This document shows, piece after piece, positions 12,097 to 20,689 of a stretch of 23,617 nt of DNA; position 1 is the stretch's first letter; each line of letters starts with the position of its first letter. Under the pieces are notes generated by a model that did not search any database, was not told where the DNA came from, and saw only the letters and a program-made list of their open reading frames with translations. A program made the translations under genes and the position numbers. Origin of the DNA: Mycobacterium sp. 1245805.9 (lineage in GTDB: Bacteria; Actinomycetota; Actinomycetes; Mycobacteriales; Mycobacteriaceae); the NCBI RefSeq assembly GCF_001672915.1, contig NZ_LZKR01000138.1, positions 1 to 23,617 of the forward strand, given 5' to 3'.

Positions 12097-12713
12097 CCGA
12101 GCCGCCCGTCGTCAACCATCACGCCGACCACCCGGGCTTCGGCGGCCCGATCGGTGTGGTGACCGCGCTCGGCATGCTCGTCACGGGCCGCGGCAACGCG
12201 CGGCTGGCCGTCGACCTGGCCGGGGTGTCGGACGCCGACCGCGTCGTCGACATCGGTTGTGGCCCAGGCAATGCCGCCCGGGCCGCCGCCGCACGGGGCG
12301 CGCGGGTCGTCGGGGTGGATCCGTCCCCGGTGATGTTGCGTCTGGCCCGTGCTGCGACGCGCGACCGCACGACCGTCACCTGGTCCCAGGGCGGCGCCGA
12401 GGCGCTGCCCGTCTCCGACGGCTGGGCGACCGTCGTCTGGTCGCTCAAGACCGTGCACCACTGGCAGGACGTCACCGCCGGGCTCGCCGAGCTGCGCCGC
12501 GTGCTGGCGCCGGCGGGGCGGTTGCTGGTGCTGGAACGCCGGGTGCAACCCGGGGCCACGGGCCTGGCCAGCCACGGCTGGACCGAGCAGCAGGCCGAGT
12601 CGTTCGCCGCGCAGTGCCGGGCGGCGGGCCTCGTCGACGTGCGCGTCGACCAGCGTCCCAAGGGCCGGGGCGTGGTGTGGGTGGTGCGGGCGGACCAGCC
12701 CTCTCAGTCCTAA
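12093..12713 (+). CDS. Class I SAM-dependent methyltransferase
   Basis: GTG 12093 lies in a GTGA overlap with the yebC stop. The product is 206 aa with SAM-binding motif [13 protein letters not shown] and post-I VVGVDPS. The start is uncertain, with an alternative ATG near 12174. The track start at 11643 was rejected. Confidence 0.75.
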
Positions 12714-12716
12714 GCC

Positions 12717-14252
12717 TTAGTCGTACCCGTGTCGCATGTCCTCGACGACGCGCGGATTGTCCAGCGTCGACGGCTCGAGCGGGCGGTCCGCGATGTCGCC
12801 GGCGAAGACGGTGGCCGCGTCGAGCACCCGCTGGTTGAGGAACCGCAGCGGGGGAGCATCGGCTGGCACCCTTGGGAGGGGTGCGGCGTCGCCGCGTTGC
12901 GCCAAGACGAACCCCCAGTCCCCGAACGTGGGCACGTGCACGTGATACGGCGTGACGGCATAACCGGCGGCCCGGATCGTCGAGACCGTCCGCCAGAACG
13001 CGGTCGACGTGGAAAGCGGGCTGCCCGCCTGCACGACCATGAGTCCGCCGGGCGCCAGCGCGCGGGCGGCGAGCGCGTAGAACTCGGTCGAATACAGCCG
13101 GCCCAGCACGGGTGTGTCGGGGTCGGGAAGGTCGACGATCACCGCGTCGAATCCGGTGTCCGAGGCGCCGCGCAGCCAGGTCATGGCGTCGCCGATCACG
13201 ACCTTGACGCGCGGGTTGTCCAGCGCGCCGCCGTTGGCGTCGCGCATGGTGGTGCGCGCCAGCTCGATGACGGCCGGGTCCAGCTCGACCTGCACGATCT
13301 TGCCGATGCCGGGCTGGCGCAGCAGCTCGCGGGCGGCCAGGCCGTCGCCGCCGCCGAGCACCAGCACCGAGCGGGCGCCCCCACCGAGCGCGGGGTAGAC
13401 CAGGCTTTCGGTGTAGCGGTACTCGTCGCGGGTGGAGAACTGCAGGCCGCCGTCGAGGTACAGCCGCATGTCATTGCCGCGCCGCGTCACCACGATCTCC
13501 TGGTACGCCGTGTGCCGGTAGGCGATGATCGGATCGGCGTAAAGCCTTTGCCTGCTTGTGGTTTCGATGTCGGTCGAGCGCACCAGCAGCGTGGCGAGCA
13601 GCCCGAGCGCGGCGGCCAGCGCGCACAGCGCGGTCGCCAGTTGCCGCGCGGAAACGATGCGGCGCAGCAAGAAGACGGCCACGATCCCCGCCGCCGCCAG
13701 GTTGATGATGCCGGTGGCCGCCGCGCCGCGGATCATGCCGAGGTGCGGCAGCAGCAGGAACGGCCAGACCAGCCCGCCCAGCAGCGCGCCGAGGTAGTCG
13801 GCGGCGTTGAGGTTGGCCAGCGTGCGCCCCGCGTCGGCCGCACCCGCCGTCCGCCCCCGCTGCAGCAGCGTCATCAGCAGCGGCACCTCGGCCCCGACCA
13901 GGCCGCCGATCAGGGCGGTGCCGGCCGCCAGCACCCACGTCGAGCCCACCGAGCCGTCCAGGAACGCGAACACCGTGTACAGCGCGGCCGCCGACAGGCC
14001 GCCGATGATGCCTAGCAGCGCCTCGACGGCGATGAAGGCGATCGCCGCGTGCGCCAGCAGCGGCTTGGCCAGCAGCGCGCCCGCGCCCAGGGCCGCGATG
14101 TAGCCCGCGACGATCAGCGACGTCGCGACGATGCCGCCGCCGTTGAGGCTGGCGGACAGCGTCAGCAGCGCGAGCTCGTAGATGATGCCGCACGCCGCGC
14201 AGGCCGCCACGGCGGCCAACAACACGGCGCGCCAACGGCCCTGGGACGTCAT
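12717..14252 (-). CDS. speE: Polytopic membrane domain fused to a spermidine synthase/aminopropyltransferase domain (Rv2601c-like)
   Basis: 511-aa ORF. The N-terminal ~215 aa form about 7 hydrophobic helices. The C-terminal domain carries VLVLGGGDG (about nt 13340-13366) and VIVDLPDPDTP, the dcAdoMet/amine-binding signatures of SpeE. Confidence 0.9.
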   Translation of the reverse strand: MTSQGRWRAVLLAAVAACAACGIIYELALLTLSASLNGGGIVATSLIVAGYIAALGAGALLAKPLLAHAAIAFIAVEALLGIIGGLSAAALYTVFAFLDGSVGSTWVLAAGTALIGGLVGAEVPLLMTLLQRGRTAGAADAGRTLANLNAADYLGALLGGLVWPFLLLPHLGMIRGAAATGIINLAAAGIVAVFLLRRIVSARQLATALCALAAALGLLATLLVRSTDIETTSRQRLYADPIIAYRHTAYQEIVVTRRGNDMRLYLDGGLQFSTRDEYRYTESLVYPALGGGARSVLVLGGGDGLAARELLRQPGIGKIVQVELDPAVIELARTTMRDANGGALDNPRVKVVIGDAMTWLRGASDTGFDAVIVDLPDPDTPVLGRLYSTEFYALAARALAPGGLMVVQAGSPLSTSTAFWRTVSTIRAAGYAVTPYHVHVPTFGDWGFVLAQRGDAAPLPRVPADAPPLRFLNQRVLDAATVFAGDIADRPLEPSTLDNPRVVEDMRHGYD

Positions 14253-14704
14253 GACACCGCCGCGGCGGTCACCCCTCCCACGGCCAGCAATATCAGGGCG
14301 ACCGCGAAGGACCCCGGGTGCAGCGTGGGCTCGTCGATGTGTTCGTGGAAGTCGCCCGGGATCAGCAGGTGCATCGCCAGCAGTGCGATGCCCAGCAGGA
14401 TGACACCCATCAGCCCGTACACCGCCACGCCGAGCAGCCCCTGGGCCAGCTGGCTGTAGCTGTTGACGATGGCGGTGATGATGACGACGGTGAGCGAGAT
14501 GTACATGGCGCCCGCGACGACGACGGCATTGGGGCGGCGATCGATGAACACCAGTTGGCGCAGCTTCCCGGGCGTCAGCCAGTCGACCACATAGAACCCG
14601 ACGAGCAGCACCGCCATCCCGACGGCGAAGTACAGGATCGTCGCGACCGCGCCCTTGAAGACGGGATTGAGGTCGACATTGCCGATCTCGACGGCGAGGT
14701 TCAT
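14249..14704 (-). CDS. DUF350/YjfL-like four-TM membrane protein (Rv2600-like)
   Basis: 151-aa ORF with four long hydrophobic segments. Its stop overlaps the speE ATG by 4 nt (ATGA). The family assignment rests on recollection of Rv2600/DUF350 and needs HMM confirmation. Confidence 0.8.
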   Translation of the reverse strand: MNLAVEIGNVDLNPVFKGAVATILYFAVGMAVLLVGFYVVDWLTPGKLRQLVFIDRRPNAVVVAGAMYISLTVVIITAIVNSYSQLAQGLLGVAVYGLMGVILLGIALLAMHLLIPGDFHEHIDEPTLHPGSFAVALILLAVGGVTAAAVS

Positions 14705-14737
14705 GGTTGTCTCCTTTGCGGTTACTGCCTTAAGCCA

Positions 14738-15169
14738 TCACTTGGTTCCGCCGGGCCCGCCGGGGGGGCGGGCGGCGCCGCCCGACGGGGAGCCGGGGAA
14801 GAACCCGGGCCCGAGGAATACGAAGGCGCCATGGCTGTATCCGGCGCTCAGGGGTTCGACGCGGATGCTGCACGGATTGTTGCCGTCCGGGCCGACGATC
14901 ACGATGTTGTTGCTGTAGCGCAGGTATTCGCTGTTGCCGTTGGAGGCGCGCGCCTCGGGGGCCTGATAGTCGGCGAGCGTGTCGGCGACCTGGTCGGGGG
15001 ACCCGGTGCACTGGTAGCGCGTCCCGTTCACGTCGCGGGAGTACTCGTGATAGTGGCTCGCGATGTAGGACCCGATGTCCTTCTGCTCCAAGATGATTCC
15101 GAAGACCAGGCAGACGACGGCGGCGACGGCCAGCGCCCCGGAGATCACGAACAGGCGGTTGCGGCTCAC
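14738..15169 (-). CDS. DUF4247-like single-pass membrane protein with a Gly/Pro-rich C-terminal tail (Rv2599-like)
   Basis: GTG 15169 lies in a GTGA overlap with the stop of the upstream gene. The product is 143 aa with the TM helix LFVISGALAVAAVVCLVFGIIL and the tail GFFPGSPSGGAARPPGGPGGTK. The track start at 15466 overlaps the upstream gene and was rejected. Confidence 0.7.
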   Translation of the reverse strand: MSRNRLFVISGALAVAAVVCLVFGIILEQKDIGSYIASHYHEYSRDVNGTRYQCTGSPDQVADTLADYQAPEARASNGNSEYLRYSNNIVIVGPDGNNPCSIRVEPLSAGYSHGAFVFLGPGFFPGSPSGGAARPPGGPGGTK

Positions 15170-15669
15170 GGGCGCCACCGGCTCTCGGTGTGCACCACCA
15201 CGCCGCCCGACTCCAGCGGGTACAGATGCCAGGTCTGCCAGTGCCAGCCGGCGCCGTCGGGTTCGGCGGTCAGCGCGGTCAGCGCGGCGTCGTCGCCGGG
15301 GAACGTGCCGCCGAGCCAGCCCGGTTCCCGCGCGCAGCGGTCGCGAAGTTCGCCGGCCAGCGAACGGAAGGCCGCCTCCTCGTGCGTCTCGGTGCGCGAC
15401 CGCAGCCGGTAGCCGGGGGCGTCGGTGCGGCGCGGCAGGTCGCCGCCGAGGCCGCGGGCGGTGCACGAAACCTGTTCGGAGAAGCGGCCTTTCGCGTGCT
15501 CGACCGCGACCACGTGCGATGCGCCCAGCACGCCGAGCAACAGCGCGCCGCCGTCGGGGTGCTGAAGGGAGCAGGTGGCCAGCGGCGCCGGTGCGGGCGC
15601 GTTGAGCGCGAGCCCCAGCCGTTCCCCGGACACGTCCGCCGGCGTCACGGCGAGCTGATGAAGGGGCAC
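15166..15669 (-). CDS. DUF2617-like soluble protein (Rv2598-like)
   Basis: 167-aa ORF with no hydrophobic helix. It starts 19 nt downstream of the preceding gene's stop and is coupled by 4 nt to the next gene. The family assignment comes from remembered synteny and is not verified. Confidence 0.7.
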   Translation of the reverse strand: MPLHQLAVTPADVSGERLGLALNAPAPAPLATCSLQHPDGGALLLGVLGASHVVAVEHAKGRFSEQVSCTARGLGGDLPRRTDAPGYRLRSRTETHEEAAFRSLAGELRDRCAREPGWLGGTFPGDDAALTALTAEPDGAGWHWQTWHLYPLESGGVVVHTESRWRP

Positions 15670-15688
15670 CGACCTGAGTCCTCTGGTC

Positions 15689-16300
15689 CTATGGCGAGGA
15701 GGGCGGCGGCGCTGGGTAGACGGTCAATTCGCCGGGCACCACGGACTTGCCCGTCGAAACCTCCCAGGGCATGTCCGGGGCCCAGCGCTCGAACGAGAGC
15801 AGGGCGCTCTCGTTGGCGTTGGTGCAGTCGAGGAATTCCATCTCGCCGCCGGCGGGCAGGCCGGTGGTGCCCTCGGTGGTGTAGGACGCCCGGCCGCGCT
15901 CCGTTTCGTGGAACGGCACGCCGTCGACGACGTACTGGTCACCGGGCTGCAGGGTGAGGTCCTTGCGAGTGACCCACATGGCCAGCTCCAGGCGCCCGTC
16001 GTCCTCTTCGACGCTCAGCCAGATCGGCTGGTCGCCGCCCTCCAGCAGGTGCTCCCACCACACGAACGGGCCCTCGCGGAACGTTACCGAGCCGCGGACC
16101 ACGAGATCGACGCCGCCGTAGCTGACGATCGCCCCGGGCCCGAGTTGGCGGGGCCCGAACTGGGGCATCGCGTTGAACGACAGCGGATCGGTGCGCCCGC
16201 TCGGCCGGGCCGGCTTTTTGGGCCGCCGCAAAGCGATGACCAGCACCACGATCGACGCGATAAACAGCACCGCCGCCAGGACGAGCAGGACTGTTCCCAC
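15689..16300 (-). CDS. DUF4178-like protein with an N-terminal TM anchor (Rv2597-like)
   Basis: GTG 16300 is preceded on the minus strand by GGAAGG with a 6-nt spacer. The product is 203 aa. The TM helix VLLVLAAVLFIASIVVLVIAL is followed by a beta-rich domain (IVSYGGVDLVVRGSVTF...WWEHLL). Confidence 0.75.
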   Translation of the reverse strand: MGTVLLVLAAVLFIASIVVLVIALRRPKKPARPSGRTDPLSFNAMPQFGPRQLGPGAIVSYGGVDLVVRGSVTFREGPFVWWEHLLEGGDQPIWLSVEEDDGRLELAMWVTRKDLTLQPGDQYVVDGVPFHETERGRASYTTEGTTGLPAGGEMEFLDCTNANESALLSFERWAPDMPWEVSTGKSVVPGELTVYPAPPPSSP

Positions 16301-16315
16301 GCCAAACCTTCCATG

Positions 16316-16339
16316 CCACAGTGCTAGCCACAGGGCTAG
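16316..16339. repeat. Tandem 12-nt direct repeat in the divergent promoter region
   Basis: CCACAGTGCTAG (16316-16327) is followed immediately by CCACAGGGCTAG (16328-16339), matching at 11 of 12 positions. The repeat lies 16-39 nt upstream of the GTG 16300 start of the minus-strand operon. Confidence 0.85.
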
Positions 16340-16355
16340 AGCGAACGTGGGCTAT

Positions 16356-16364
16356 AAGTTAACA
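16356..16364 (-). promoter_or_regulatory. Candidate extended -10 (TGT-TAACTT) for the DUF4178-speE operon
   Basis: The minus strand reads TGTTAACTT, which fits TGN + TANNNT. This would give a leader of about 50 nt that contains the tandem 12-mers. Confidence 0.3.
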
Positions 16365-16415
16365 GCTTTCGTCCGACGGCAGCGTGTCCTACCGGATCCC
16401 GTCGGTGCGGCCGGT

Positions 16416-16421
16416 TAGGCT
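16416..16421 (+). promoter_or_regulatory. Candidate -10 hexamer for ruvCAB
   Basis: TAGGCT fits TANNNT and lies directly upstream of, and abutting, the SOS box. It is 33 nt before ATG 16454. Confidence 0.3.
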
Positions 16422-16422
16422 C

Positions 16423-16438
16423 TCGAACAGCTGTTCGT
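16423..16438. promoter_or_regulatory. LexA SOS box upstream of ruvC
   Basis: TCGAACAGCTGTTCGT matches the mycobacterial LexA consensus TCGAAC-N4-GTTCGA at 11 of 12 specified positions. It lies 16 nt upstream of ATG 16454 and just before the RBS GAAGGAG (16441-16447). Confidence 0.75.
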
Positions 16439-16453
16439 ACGAAGGAGCCGGCA

Positions 16454-18702: not shown

Positions 18703-18738
18703 TCTGCATCAGCAAACCGCTTGGCGGAGGAGATTCTG

Positions 18739-19389
18739 ATGAGGCGCACCGGTCCCGACTATGACAGCCCACGCACGCCGTACATGCCACGCACCCGCGG
18801 TGCGGTGTCCGGGCTGCTTCTGATCCTCTTGGGTGCATGGGGGGCCTTGGCCCCGTTCATCGGGCCCCTGATCAGGTGGTCGTATTCCGTCGACCCGGCC
18901 TGGACGTGGACGACGGCGAAAGGCTGGCTGGAGGTGCTGCCCGGCGTGGTTGCCGCGGTGGGCGGCCTGATCCTGGTCGTGTCCGGCAATCGCGCCAGCG
19001 CGGTGCTCGGCGGCTGGCTGGCCGTCGTCGCCGGGGCCTGGTTTGTGGTCGGCCGGGCGTTGGCCGCGACGCTGAACATCGGTGACGTCGGCCAGCCGGT
19101 GGCCGCGACGGACCTGAAGCGGGCCCTGCTCGAGGTCACCTACTTCACCGGCCTGGGCGCGCTGATCGTGTTCCTCGGCGGCGCCGCCCTGGGGCGCGTC
19201 GCGGTGCGCCATGCGCGCGACGTCGTCGTGACCGAACCGGCGCCCGTCGCCGCCACGCCGGCACACGAGCCGGCCGTGTACGACGAGTCGCCGCGCGACG
19301 TGCGGACCGACGAGCGTGGCCGGGGCGGCTTCTTCCACCGGCGCGCCGGGGGCGGACTGTTCCGCCGGCACCACCACGCCGGCGTCTGA
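18739..19389 (+). CDS. Conserved 4-TM membrane protein, paralogue A (family not recognised)
   Basis: ATG 18739 is preceded by GGAGGAG (18725-18731). The product is 216 aa with four hydrophobic helices and an Arg/His-rich tail (GFFHRRAGGGLFRRHHHAGV). It is about 65% identical to the ORF at 20012-20689 over 147 aa. Confidence 0.75.
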   Translation: MRRTGPDYDSPRTPYMPRTRGAVSGLLLILLGAWGALAPFIGPLIRWSYSVDPAWTWTTAKGWLEVLPGVVAAVGGLILVVSGNRASAVLGGWLAVVAGAWFVVGRALAATLNIGDVGQPVAATDLKRALLEVTYFTGLGALIVFLGGAALGRVAVRHARDVVVTEPAPVAATPAHEPAVYDESPRDVRTDERGRGGFFHRRAGGGLFRRHHHAGV

Positions 19390-19392
19390 TAA

Positions 19393-19441
19393 CGCGCGAG
19401 AGCACCGGTAGTCCCCAGCGGGCTGCCGGTGCTGTTGCGCG
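19393..19441 (+). terminator. Candidate stem-loop terminator after paralogue A
   Basis: CGCGCGAGAGCACCGG (19393-19408) pairs with CCGGTGCTGTTGCGCG (19426-19441) at 14 of 16 positions, including a perfect 8-bp inner stem, with a 17-nt loop. It starts 4 nt after the stop. There is no U-tract. Confidence 0.4.
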
Positions 19442-19498
19442 CCCGGGCGACCGCCGCTCGGTATGGTTCTTGGGTCGTTCGACTACCGAGGAGGAGCG

Positions 19499-19885
19499 AT
19501 GCTCACCGCCGGGTTGGTGTTCGCCGGGCTGGCAGCCCTACTGCACGTCTACATCTTCACGATGGAGTCGTTGACCTGGACCTCGGAGCGCACCCGCGCC
19601 GTCTTCGGGACGACGCCCGAGGAAGCCGAGACCACCCGGCTGCTCGCCTTCAACCAGGGCTTCTACAACCTGTTCCTGGCGATCGTCACCTTCCTCGGCA
19701 TTCCCCCGGTGATCATGGGCGACAAGGCCGTGGGGGTCGCGCTCATTCTCGCCGGCGTCGGATCCATGGCCGCCGCCGCGATCGTGCTGGTGTTCTCCGC
19801 CCGGGAGAAGGCGCGGGCCGCGGTGATCCAGGGCACGTTTCCGGTGATTGCCATCGTGCTGGTGGTTCTCGGCCTGTCCTGGTAA
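19499..19885 (+). CDS. DUF1304-family small membrane protein
   Basis: ATG 19499 follows GAGGAGGAG (19489-19497). The product is 128 aa. HVYIFTMESLTW...FG...LAFNQGFYNLFLA resembles the DUF1304 signature, and four hydrophobic helices are present. The track start at 19463 lacks an RBS. Confidence 0.8.
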   Translation: MLTAGLVFAGLAALLHVYIFTMESLTWTSERTRAVFGTTPEEAETTRLLAFNQGFYNLFLAIVTFLGIPPVIMGDKAVGVALILAGVGSMAAAAIVLVFSAREKARAAVIQGTFPVIAIVLVVLGLSW

Positions 19886-20011
19886 CACCAGCACCATCAG
19901 CCTCACTGGTCACGCAAAACCGCTTCCTTGTGCCCGCAGGTGTTACATCGCGGGCGGGTCGGGTACTCCCGGGGGGCCGGAAAACGGCCCGGCTTCAATT
20001 GAGGAGATGGA

Positions 20012-20689
20012 ATGAGATACGCAGATAGGGACTATCCAGGCGCTTTGACCATGCCGCGCTCGCGCGGCGCGATCAGCGGATTGATCCTGGTGATCCTTGG
20101 CGCCTGGGGGGCGTTGATCCCGTTCGTCGGCCCCCACTTCGACTTCGCCTACACGCCCGACCGCGATTGGGCCTGGACGACGGCGCGCGGCTGGCTCGAG
20201 GTGCTCCCGGGCGGCGCGACCGTGGTCGGCGGCCTGCTGCTGATCGTCGCCGGCAACCGCATCGCCGCGATGCTGGGCGGCTGGCTCGCGGTCCTGTCCG
20301 GCGCATGGTTCGTGGTGGGCGGCCAGATTGCTCCTCTGCTGGGCATCGGATCCGCCGGCGACCCGATCGCGGCGACCGAACGCAAGCGCGCCGCGCTCGA
20401 GGTCTCCTATTTCTCGGGCCTCGGTGCGCTGATCATCTTCGTGGGCGGGGTCGTCCTGGCGCGCACCGCGGTCCGGCTCGCGCGCGACGTGGAACCCCTG
20501 GGCCCGACCGAGGCCGAGGCAGCTGCGCCGGGCGGGGAGCCGGCGTACGTGTCCGGGCTCGACGAGTCGCCCGCGGTGTCGTCGGGCGCGGTGACCAAGC
20601 CCCGGATGGAGCGCGGCTGGCGCCGCCAGCGCGGCGCCGCGGGGTCGCCGAACGCGGCGTACCTGCGCTGGCCGCACCCCCAGGGCTGA
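20012..20689 (+). CDS. Conserved 4-TM membrane protein, paralogue B
   Basis: ATG 20012 follows GAGGAG (20001-20006). The product is 225 aa. It has the same helix layout and conserved blocks as paralogue A (GAWGAL.PF.GP, W.WTTA.GWLEVLPG, LGGWLAV..GAWFVVG, LEV.YF.GLGALI.F.GG). Confidence 0.75.
   Translation: MRYADRDYPGALTMPRSRGAISGLILVILGAWGALIPFVGPHFDFAYTPDRDWAWTTARGWLEVLPGGATVVGGLLLIVAGNRIAAMLGGWLAVLSGAWFVVGGQIAPLLGIGSAGDPIAATERKRAALEVSYFSGLGALIIFVGGVVLARTAVRLARDVEPLGPTEAEAAAPGGEPAYVSGLDESPAVSSGAVTKPRMERGWRRQRGAAGSPNAAYLRWPHPQG

Follow-up and report, generated by a model that had tools for sequence, protein, structure and literature searches.

The closest described systems to the five-gene operon analysed here are bacterial operons that contain an aminopropyltransferase fused to a membrane domain. 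The operon lies on a stretch of 23,617 nt from Mycobacterium sp. 1245805.9 (contig NZ_LZKR01000138.1); in the following, "the window" means this whole stretch. Such fusions reportedly did not complement an Escherichia coli spermidine synthase mutant in the study of Li et al. from 2019 (Biochem J 476:2579). Spermidine is said to have been absent in the native hosts, and DUF350 is said to have been noted there as a clustered gene.

Ravi et al. (mSystems 2024) described operons that combine a fusion of seven transmembrane helices (7TM) and a spermine synthase with DUF350, DUF4178 and PspA/CesT (PMC11237479). In variants of these operons, DUF4247 and DUF2617 replace the PspA/CesT dyad, for which CCP45395.1 and CCP45394.1 are cited (PMC11237479). 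The supplementary-table row of Rv2597 from Mycobacterium tuberculosis reads TM+DUF4178->DUF2617->SIG+DUF4247->YjfL-TM->TM+Spermine_synth, where TM stands for transmembrane (PMC11237479). The proposal of the authors was a monitoring of polyamine levels or an aminopropylation of other substrates, and the link to polyamine genes is credited to Li et al. 2019 (PMC11237479). The operon is thus already known: it was described for M. tuberculosis with the same inference as in an earlier note on the DNA of the window, and it is biochemically unsolved. The novelty implied by that note found no support, as both the operon and the inference are in print (PMC11237479).

In the window, five consecutive genes on the minus strand, spanning 16300..12717, were found in the list of open reading frames (ORFs) and on the sequence, as had been claimed:

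15689..16300, minus strand: gene 1, DUF4178 protein of 203 aa with a GTG start, orthologue of Rv2597
15166..15669, minus strand: gene 2, DUF2617 protein of 167 aa with a GTG start, orthologue of Rv2598
14738..15169, minus strand: gene 3, DUF4247 protein of 143 aa, starting from the GTG within GTGA, orthologue of Rv2599
14249..14704, minus strand: gene 4, DUF350 (YjfL family) protein of 151 aa with an ATG start, orthologue of Rv2600
12717..14252, minus strand: gene 5, membrane domain-aminopropyltransferase fusion of 511 aa with an ATG start, orthologue of Rv2601 (speE)

It is close to certain, judged by families, gene order and neighbourhood, that the operon is the orthologue of Rv2597-Rv2601. 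M. tuberculosis matches the window in the five families, in their order and in their topology labels. The neighbourhood is also the same, with ruvCAB on one side and yebC/pdxT/tesB on the other, and the DUF4247 protein has 143 aa in both. The earlier note had given the set as Rv2597-Rv2601c; the architecture agrees with this (PMC11237479), but the speE gene is Rv2601 and not Rv2601c (PMC11841054). A difference lies in the direct neighbours: in the window, the next gene on one side is ruvC, in divergent orientation, and on the other side a class I methyltransferase gene runs towards the speE orthologue. In H37Rv, by contrast, the operon is presumably flanked by the toxin-antitoxin pairs vapBC40 and vapBC41, with a vapBC pair at the position of the window's methyltransferase gene.

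The junctions between the genes were read on the sequence. Gene 1 and gene 2 are separated by a gap of 19 nt, and gene 3 and gene 4 by a gap of 33 nt. The start of gene 3 lies on the stop of gene 2 (4-nt GTGA overlap), and the start of gene 5 lies on the stop of gene 4 (4-nt ATGA overlap). A terminator scan gave no internal terminator of note in the five-gene operon, and an Rfam scan gave no element at the operon.

For a comparison among mycobacteria, one genome per species was scanned with the DUF2617 motif W[RQ]TWHLYP. This gave 326 loci, of which the best 80 were studied; all 80 came from Mycobacterium or from Actinomycetota bins. The five genes were colinear in 75 of these 80 mycobacterial loci (tblastn with the five window proteins), and the median identities of the five proteins were 78-88%. 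The 4-nt overlaps of DUF2617/DUF4247 and of DUF350/SpeE were kept in all 74 complete loci, and the gap between DUF4178 and DUF2617 was 8-20 nt in 73 of the 74. As gene order and overlaps are conserved across the mycobacterial loci, this argues strongly for one operon under selection and indirectly for translational coupling of the five genes. The earlier claim of a single, tightly packed operon with exactly these junctions is therefore well supported.

The families assigned to the five products were all recovered in Pfam, with E-values from 9e-23 to 2e-56 and far above the gathering scores. Membrane segments were called by a hydropathy scan. One TM helix was predicted for the DUF4178 protein, one for the DUF4247 protein, four for the DUF350 protein and about seven for the SpeE fusion, whereas the same scan gave no hydrophobic segment in the DUF2617 protein, which is predicted to be soluble. 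This agrees with the earlier statement that all products but one have TM helices.

The SpeE fusion consists of the following parts:

13578..14252, minus strand: membrane domain, aa 1-225, with about seven hydrophobic segments
12894..13544, minus strand: catalytic aminopropyltransferase domain, aa 237-453
13355..13341, minus strand: GGGDG motif, read from the translation
13136..13116, minus strand: VDLPDPD motif, read from the translation

The fusion matched PF01564 with 5.5e-34 (117.8 bits, gathering score 22.9) and, over its full length, NCBIfam NF002956 with 631.4 bits (cut-off 472). The GGGDG and VDLPDPD motifs, which had been called intact, were intact in the translation. In an alignment with E. 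coli SpeE, the positions Q, D-E-x-x-Y, GGGDG, VE(L/I)D and D-x-x-D-P were kept. Among the motifs present, the GGGDG loop is known to bind the donor decarboxylated S-adenosylmethionine (dcSAM), the acidic residue of VELD binds ribose, and D-x-x-D-P is catalytic. The closest solved relatives of the catalytic domain were Thermus thermophilus SpeE (3anx/1uir, 1e-33), 7xif and thermospermine synthase (6bq2). The fusion was thereby shown to keep every motif of a dcSAM-dependent aminopropyltransferase, and we infer that it transfers an aminopropyl group from dcSAM to an amine acceptor.

The catalytic fold and the motifs are common to the window enzyme and the soluble aminopropyltransferases (1uir/3anx, ACL5 6bq2 and E. 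coli SpeE 3o4f). Unlike the window enzyme, the soluble enzymes have no membrane domain and no link to DUF genes. Moreover, the window enzyme is extended at its C-terminus by about 55 conserved residues, which it has in common with fusions from Proteobacteria. A homologue search with the SpeE fusion returned close mycobacterial SpeE fusions only, among them a protein of Mycobacterium sp. 1245805.9 with 100% identity.

The membrane domain was compared across Mycobacterium, Streptomyces, a metagenomic contig (L084), Ralstonia and Novosphingobium, at an overall identity of 40-50%. The invariant residues were Y25-E26, E77, E122-x-P124-L125, D152-Y153, N184, R197 and R203. Four of them (E26, E77, E122 and D152) are acidic residues in predicted TM helices. 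The domain matched no Pfam family even at E=10, and its profile gave only weak CrcB matches in the PDB (E ~0.01), with no convincing relative. The AlphaFold2 (AF2) model of the domain, built on an alignment of close homologues only, was unusable, with a predicted local distance difference test score (pLDDT) of 51. NCBIfam NF037959 (fused MFS/spermidine synthase) was matched by the SpeE fusion with 42.4 bits at a cut-off of 40, over aa 66-422, and much of this score came from the SpeE domain.

Orthologues of the fusion (in the following, membrane-SpeE) were also found outside Actinobacteria. In a plasmid collection, tblastn located them in 155 plasmid records, 120 of which were from Ralstonia. 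The clusters examined lie on megaplasmids of Ralstonia and Novosphingobium. In Ralstonia wenshanensis, one strand carries speD, a gene for a DUF4178 protein with two domains, an SPFH-SHOCT gene and DUF350, and the opposite strand carries membrane-SpeE and a flavin amine oxidase. In Novosphingobium sp. ES2-1, the genes of SPFH, DUF4178, DUF4178, DUF350, membrane-SpeE, amine oxidase and speD run in one direction. These SPFH/Band-7 clusters correspond to the "second variant" of Ravi et al. Their full-length membrane-SpeE is 40-41% identical to that of the window and has the same membrane invariants, and its gene lies next to DUF350 and DUF4178 genes.

What sets the Ralstonia and Novosphingobium clusters apart is the SPFH-SHOCT protein, the S-adenosylmethionine (AdoMet) decarboxylase and a flavin adenine dinucleotide (FAD) amine oxidase with a twin-arginine translocation (Tat) signal. 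No gene in these clusters is annotated as DUF2617 or DUF4247, and their DUF4178 proteins have zinc ribbons in place of the TM anchor of the window protein. The SpeD proteins clustered with the proteobacterial membrane-SpeE have no signal peptide. The presence of speD beside an orthologous enzyme in Proteobacteria supports dcSAM as the donor. The Tat signals of the amine oxidases, at L087 8893-10515 and L088 8854-10470, are MNSRRSFLVGAAAAG... and MKAESTRRQVLAGAAVGAGATALLGGC, the latter with a lipobox; the twin-arginine motifs read from the two sequences are SRRSFL and TRRQVL. Because of these signals, the oxidases should be periplasmic.

In Streptomyces, the pairing of DUF2617 with membrane-SpeE was found in four of five sampled species or contigs (five of six loci). 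DUF2617 stands directly before a membrane-SpeE of 505-539 aa in S. griseoviridis (L002 and L003), in S. capparidis and on two contigs. The membrane-SpeE of S. griseoviridis is 41% identical to the window protein in tblastn and 44% in the full-length alignment. DUF4178, DUF4247 and DUF350 were not found near membrane-SpeE in the sampled Streptomyces loci. An SRPBCC (CoxG/Polyketide_cyc2) gene always follows the Streptomyces membrane-SpeE (L002 12340-13446, L091 7309-8250, L090 2759-3763 and L085 8603-11164); SRPBCC is a family that binds hydrophobic ligands. In L085, the two are called as one product of 853 aa, but an assembly frameshift probably explains this apparent SpeE-SRPBCC fusion, as its Spermine_synth match covers only 87 of 186 profile positions; the fusion was left out of the evidence.

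The full set was found on contig L084, which is metagenomic, high in GC and actinobacterial, with a ClpB 70% identical to that of Streptomyces. Its order is DUF4178-DUF2617-DUF4247-DUF350-extra gene-membrane-SpeE, with abutting junctions. The extra gene (L084 9379-10107) encodes a bitopic protein of 242 aa in which an N-terminal anchor and a C-terminal TM helix enclose an acidic, extracytoplasmic stretch with two cysteines. This protein had no Pfam match, and neither the window nor any of the other loci has a counterpart of it. Co-occurrence beyond mycobacteria, which had been named as a check, was therefore seen as a full set on this contig and as partial sets in Streptomyces, Ralstonia and Novosphingobium.

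A further comparison is that with E. coli, where the order is yjfI-yjfJ(PspA family)-yjfK-yjfL(DUF350)-yjfM-yjfC, as the earlier note had stated. For YjfC, the present annotation is peptide--spermidine ligase, after Pederick et al. 2023 (cited in PMC11762307). In this cluster and in the PspA/CesT operons of the Shewanella type (PMC11237479), DUF350 goes together with a membrane-stress scaffold and an enzyme related to polyamines, which resembles the link of DUF350 with an enzyme in the window. The E. coli cluster has features of its own (a PspA paralogue, DUF2170, DUF2491, DUF1190 and the ATP-grasp peptide--spermidine ligase) and is without aminopropyltransferase, DUF4178, DUF2617 and DUF4247. 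The window operon, in turn, is without the PspA/CesT dyad, as all five ORFs belong to other families, and tblastn with E. coli YjfJ had no match in either the window or 84 related loci. The claim that DUF350 pairs with a polyamine enzyme across phyla became stronger still, because DUF350 and DUF4178 also accompany an orthologous membrane-SpeE in Betaproteobacteria and Alphaproteobacteria.

Taken together, these gene neighbourhoods have a cross-phylum core of DUF4178, DUF350 and membrane-SpeE, with DUF2617 and DUF4247 as an actinobacterial accessory pair. We regard the operon of the window as the actinobacterial variant of a widespread three-part module. The accessory slot varies: PspA and a CesT-like chaperone were published, SPFH/Band-7 was seen in the proteobacterial clusters, and DUF2617 and DUF4247 stand in the window.

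The DUF4178 protein matched PF13785 with 5.2e-37 (127.5 bits, gathering score 25) over 134 of 136 profile positions. A TM helix at aa 4-22 is followed by RRPKKPARPSGR, and no charge precedes the helix; the beta-rich DUF4178 domain is at aa 54-187. Because of this charge distribution, the domain is predicted to face the cytoplasm and to be tethered to the membrane. The protein has a median identity of 84% among 76 mycobacterial orthologues and is 37% identical to the copy on contig L084. Upstream of its GTG start lies GGAAGG.

The DUF4247 protein matched PF14042 with 4.9e-33 (114.8 bits, gathering score 27). Its N-terminal signal-anchor at aa 8-26 is preceded by arginines, and two cysteines (C54 and C100) are at least 97% conserved in 79 sequences. 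As the positive charges precede the hydrophobic segment, the DUF4247 domain is predicted to face outwards. For its orthologue Rv2599 (143 aa), in vitro binding to fibronectin, laminin and collagen was published (PMC3726780). The statement that the four DUF members have no biochemistry thus fails for Rv2599, for which this matrix-protein binding is on record.

The DUF350 protein, with four TM helices, matched PF03994 with 8.6e-23 (81.3 bits, gathering score 26), and an AAGGAG ribosome-binding site lies upstream of its ATG. Compared with E. coli YjfL and the Ralstonia and Novosphingobium proteins, DUF350 is an apparent tandem duplication of a 2-TM unit with a (T/I)PG motif. The Novosphingobium copy (L088 7112-7321) is a single unit of 69 aa.

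The DUF2617 protein matched PF10936 with 2e-56 (190.9 bits, gathering score 22.3). The family is small (334 matches in 1.84 billion representative proteins) and abundant in Streptomyces. Among 86 diverse members, S51, H52, E65, T131, W144, H148, Y150 and P151 did not vary, and D12 and C69 hardly did. Ravi et al. also noted that two His, one Asp and one Glu are conserved in DUF2617 (PMC11237479). The conserved polar residues suggest an enzyme or a metal site. The AF2 model was confident (pLDDT 96). A Foldseek search of the PDB with this model found no solved structural relative (best E 0.01, template modelling score <0.35), and sequence profiles gave no match in the PDB and no remote Pfam match. 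By hhalign, a relationship of DUF2617 with YjfK (DUF2491; probability 0.2%), YjfI (DUF2170; 0.1%) or AdoMet decarboxylase (E. coli SpeD; 0.55%) was rejected, and the WHxYP/HTYPE resemblance was not significant.

In some genomes, DUF2617 occurs without the enzyme. In Mycobacterium sp. 1164966.3 (L076 9551-11273), and also in L079 and L053, it stands alone between a PIN-domain gene and yebC. The L076 copy is 71% identical to that of the window; DUF4178, DUF4247, DUF350 and SpeE are all gone from this type of region, which is otherwise syntenic from ruvB-ruvA to yebC. In Streptomyces somaliensis (L089 5001-6629), DUF2617 is followed by the SRPBCC gene without the intervening membrane-SpeE gene of the other Streptomyces loci.

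We propose, with a probability of roughly 60%, that the operon serves a membrane-coupled, dcSAM-dependent aminopropylation tied to envelope homeostasis, with handling of the amine at the membrane or through it. The enzyme domain would transfer the aminopropyl group from dcSAM onto an amine acceptor, and the membrane domain of the fusion would bind or conduct the acceptor or the product. A polyamine-like compound would be made at the cytoplasmic membrane, or passed through it towards the envelope, rather than spermidine for the cytoplasm. DUF350 with its four TM helices, the anchored cytoplasmic DUF4178 and the extracytoplasmic DUF4247 would build a platform in the membrane and thereby link this activity with the condition of the envelope. 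For DUF2617, we suggest the role of an enzyme-like or metal-binding partner in the cytoplasm that is specific to Actinobacteria.

Handling of the amine at the membrane or beyond it is suggested by the invariant acidic residues of the membrane domain, by the exported oxidases and by the outward-facing DUF4247. PspA with a CesT-like chaperone, or SPFH/Band-7, in the accessory slot of other phyla points to a role in membrane stress or homeostasis. A membrane polyamine or envelope-stress system instead of housekeeping spermidine synthesis, as the earlier note had put it, fits this evidence.

The operon is conserved in M. tuberculosis and in most mycobacteria, and it holds the only gene annotated there for polyamine biosynthesis. 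If the acceptor is not putrescine, or if the product is delivered to the envelope, this would mean a pathway of envelope modification or stress that is new for a major group of pathogens, and four widespread DUF families would gain a function. The window itself adds one more orthologue to a question already posed in print in 2019 and 2024, not a new question. Points that may be useful for the design of experiments are the minimal Streptomyces pair of DUF2617 and the enzyme, the four invariant intramembrane acidic residues and the oxidases with Tat signals.

Several observations weigh against this proposal. The NCBI equivalog NF002956 names the SpeE fusion plainly a polyamine aminopropyltransferase. 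DUF4178, DUF4247 and DUF350 are not obligatory partners, because they do not stand beside the Streptomyces enzyme. As DUF2617 is kept where SpeE was lost (L076 and S. somaliensis), it may work independently of SpeE and have its own role. Within 10 kb of the operon, the window and 84 actinobacterial loci gave no homologue of speD, the amine oxidase, SPFH or PspA. Finally, positive-inside counting in four homologues of the SpeE fusion (aa 1-245 in the window protein) placed the N-terminus inside, with seven spans and the lysine- and arginine-rich loops 2, 4 and 6 inside. Formally, this would put the catalytic domain outside, in conflict with a donor that is cytoplasmic.

The proposal was weighed against other explanations. 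The enzyme could be an ordinary housekeeping spermidine synthase with a membrane anchor, which converts putrescine to cytoplasmic spermidine while the four DUF genes are passengers. The 631-bit equivalog match and the intact catalytic motifs agree with this, and Rv2601 is called the spermidine synthase gene of M. tuberculosis (PMC11841054). We regard it as rather unlikely. A mere anchor does not sit well with a membrane domain that has been kept in both Actinobacteria and Proteobacteria and whose intramembrane acidic residues do not vary, nor passenger genes with the linkage of DUF350 and DUF4178 across phyla and the conserved overlapping junctions. The nearest solved enzymes, too, belong to the broad-substrate and thermospermine clade and not to putrescine-specific SpeE, and fusions of this kind reportedly failed to complement the E. 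coli speE mutant of Li et al. 2019.

A bolder form of the proposal concerns DUF2617. It could be an active enzyme with a fold that has no solved relative and an obligate actinobacterial partner of the membrane aminopropyltransferase. It would make or process the donor or the acceptor and take the position that AdoMet decarboxylase and amine oxidase have in the proteobacterial clusters, and the pair would yield a novel aminopropylated envelope compound in mycobacteria and Streptomyces. We consider this form speculative and unlikely.

The chemistry could also take place outside the cytoplasm. The catalytic domain would then aminopropylate an envelope component (a lipid head group, a cell-wall polymer or a surface protein), and the membrane domain would export the donor. 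The outer C-terminus from the positive-inside count, the Tat signals on the Ralstonia and Novosphingobium oxidases and the predicted extracytoplasmic DUF4247 speak for such an arrangement, which we nevertheless hold to be quite improbable. The donor dcSAM is made in the cytoplasm, the SpeD proteins of the clusters lack a signal peptide, and we know of no exporter of dcSAM. Moreover, the topology comes from hydropathy only, the AF2 model of the domain was unusable, and segment 7 may not span the membrane.

DUF2617 could, in another variant, supply or process the donor or acceptor as a new enzyme that replaces AdoMet decarboxylase or amine oxidase in the actinobacterial clusters. It is the only partner kept beside the Streptomyces enzyme, and speD and the oxidase are missing within 10 kb of the clusters with DUF2617, just as neither of the two speD clusters has an annotated DUF2617. 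Its conserved D12, S51-H52, E65, C69 and H148 and the confident model without a solved relative would suit a new enzyme. The hhalign probability of 0.55% against E. coli SpeD and the lack of a remote Pfam or PDB match do not favour this replacement, and neither does the persistence of DUF2617 where SpeE was lost, so that we find it very doubtful.

A surface adhesin or an anti-phage defence locus instead of a metabolic system is hardly credible: the in vitro binding of matrix proteins by one recombinant fragment (Rv2599) does not account for the conservation of an enzyme operon that soil Streptomyces and Ralstonia have as well, and the sole PADLOC match, mad2 of the MADS defence system on the SpeE catalytic domain (window 12894-13376, 73.7 bits), is a fold-level match limited to the shared class I methyltransferase-fold core, while the other four proteins match no defence model.

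The operon is flanked by ruvC, ruvA and ruvB on one side and by the class I methyltransferase gene, yebC, pdxT, tesB and pdxS on the other. A fadD9-like carboxylic acid reductase (CAR) gene lies further out. We take the region of the window to be the Rv2590-Rv2606c region of M. tuberculosis on the H37Rv map. Three consecutive plus-strand ORFs downstream of ruvB (18721-19389, 19429-20028 and 20012-20689) had no Pfam match. The class I S-adenosylmethionine methyltransferase gene (about 12100-12713, plus strand; Methyltransf_11, 5.8e-23) converges on the speE orthologue, and the two stop codons are only 3 nt apart.

Between the operon and ruvC lies one further feature:

16301..16453, no strand assigned: divergent intergenic region between operon gene 1 and ruvC, 153 nt, presumed promoter region

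This region presumably holds the operon promoter; the promoter scan found no sigma-70 consensus promoter upstream of the operon. At 16425-16436, the region contains the perfect palindrome GAACAGCTGTTC, which resembles an SOS box and has the form of the mycobacterial SOS (LexA) box. One match of this type was found in the window against 0.32 expected, and 27 of 100 shuffles gave at least one. The palindrome most likely regulates ruvC, and it could also affect the operon.

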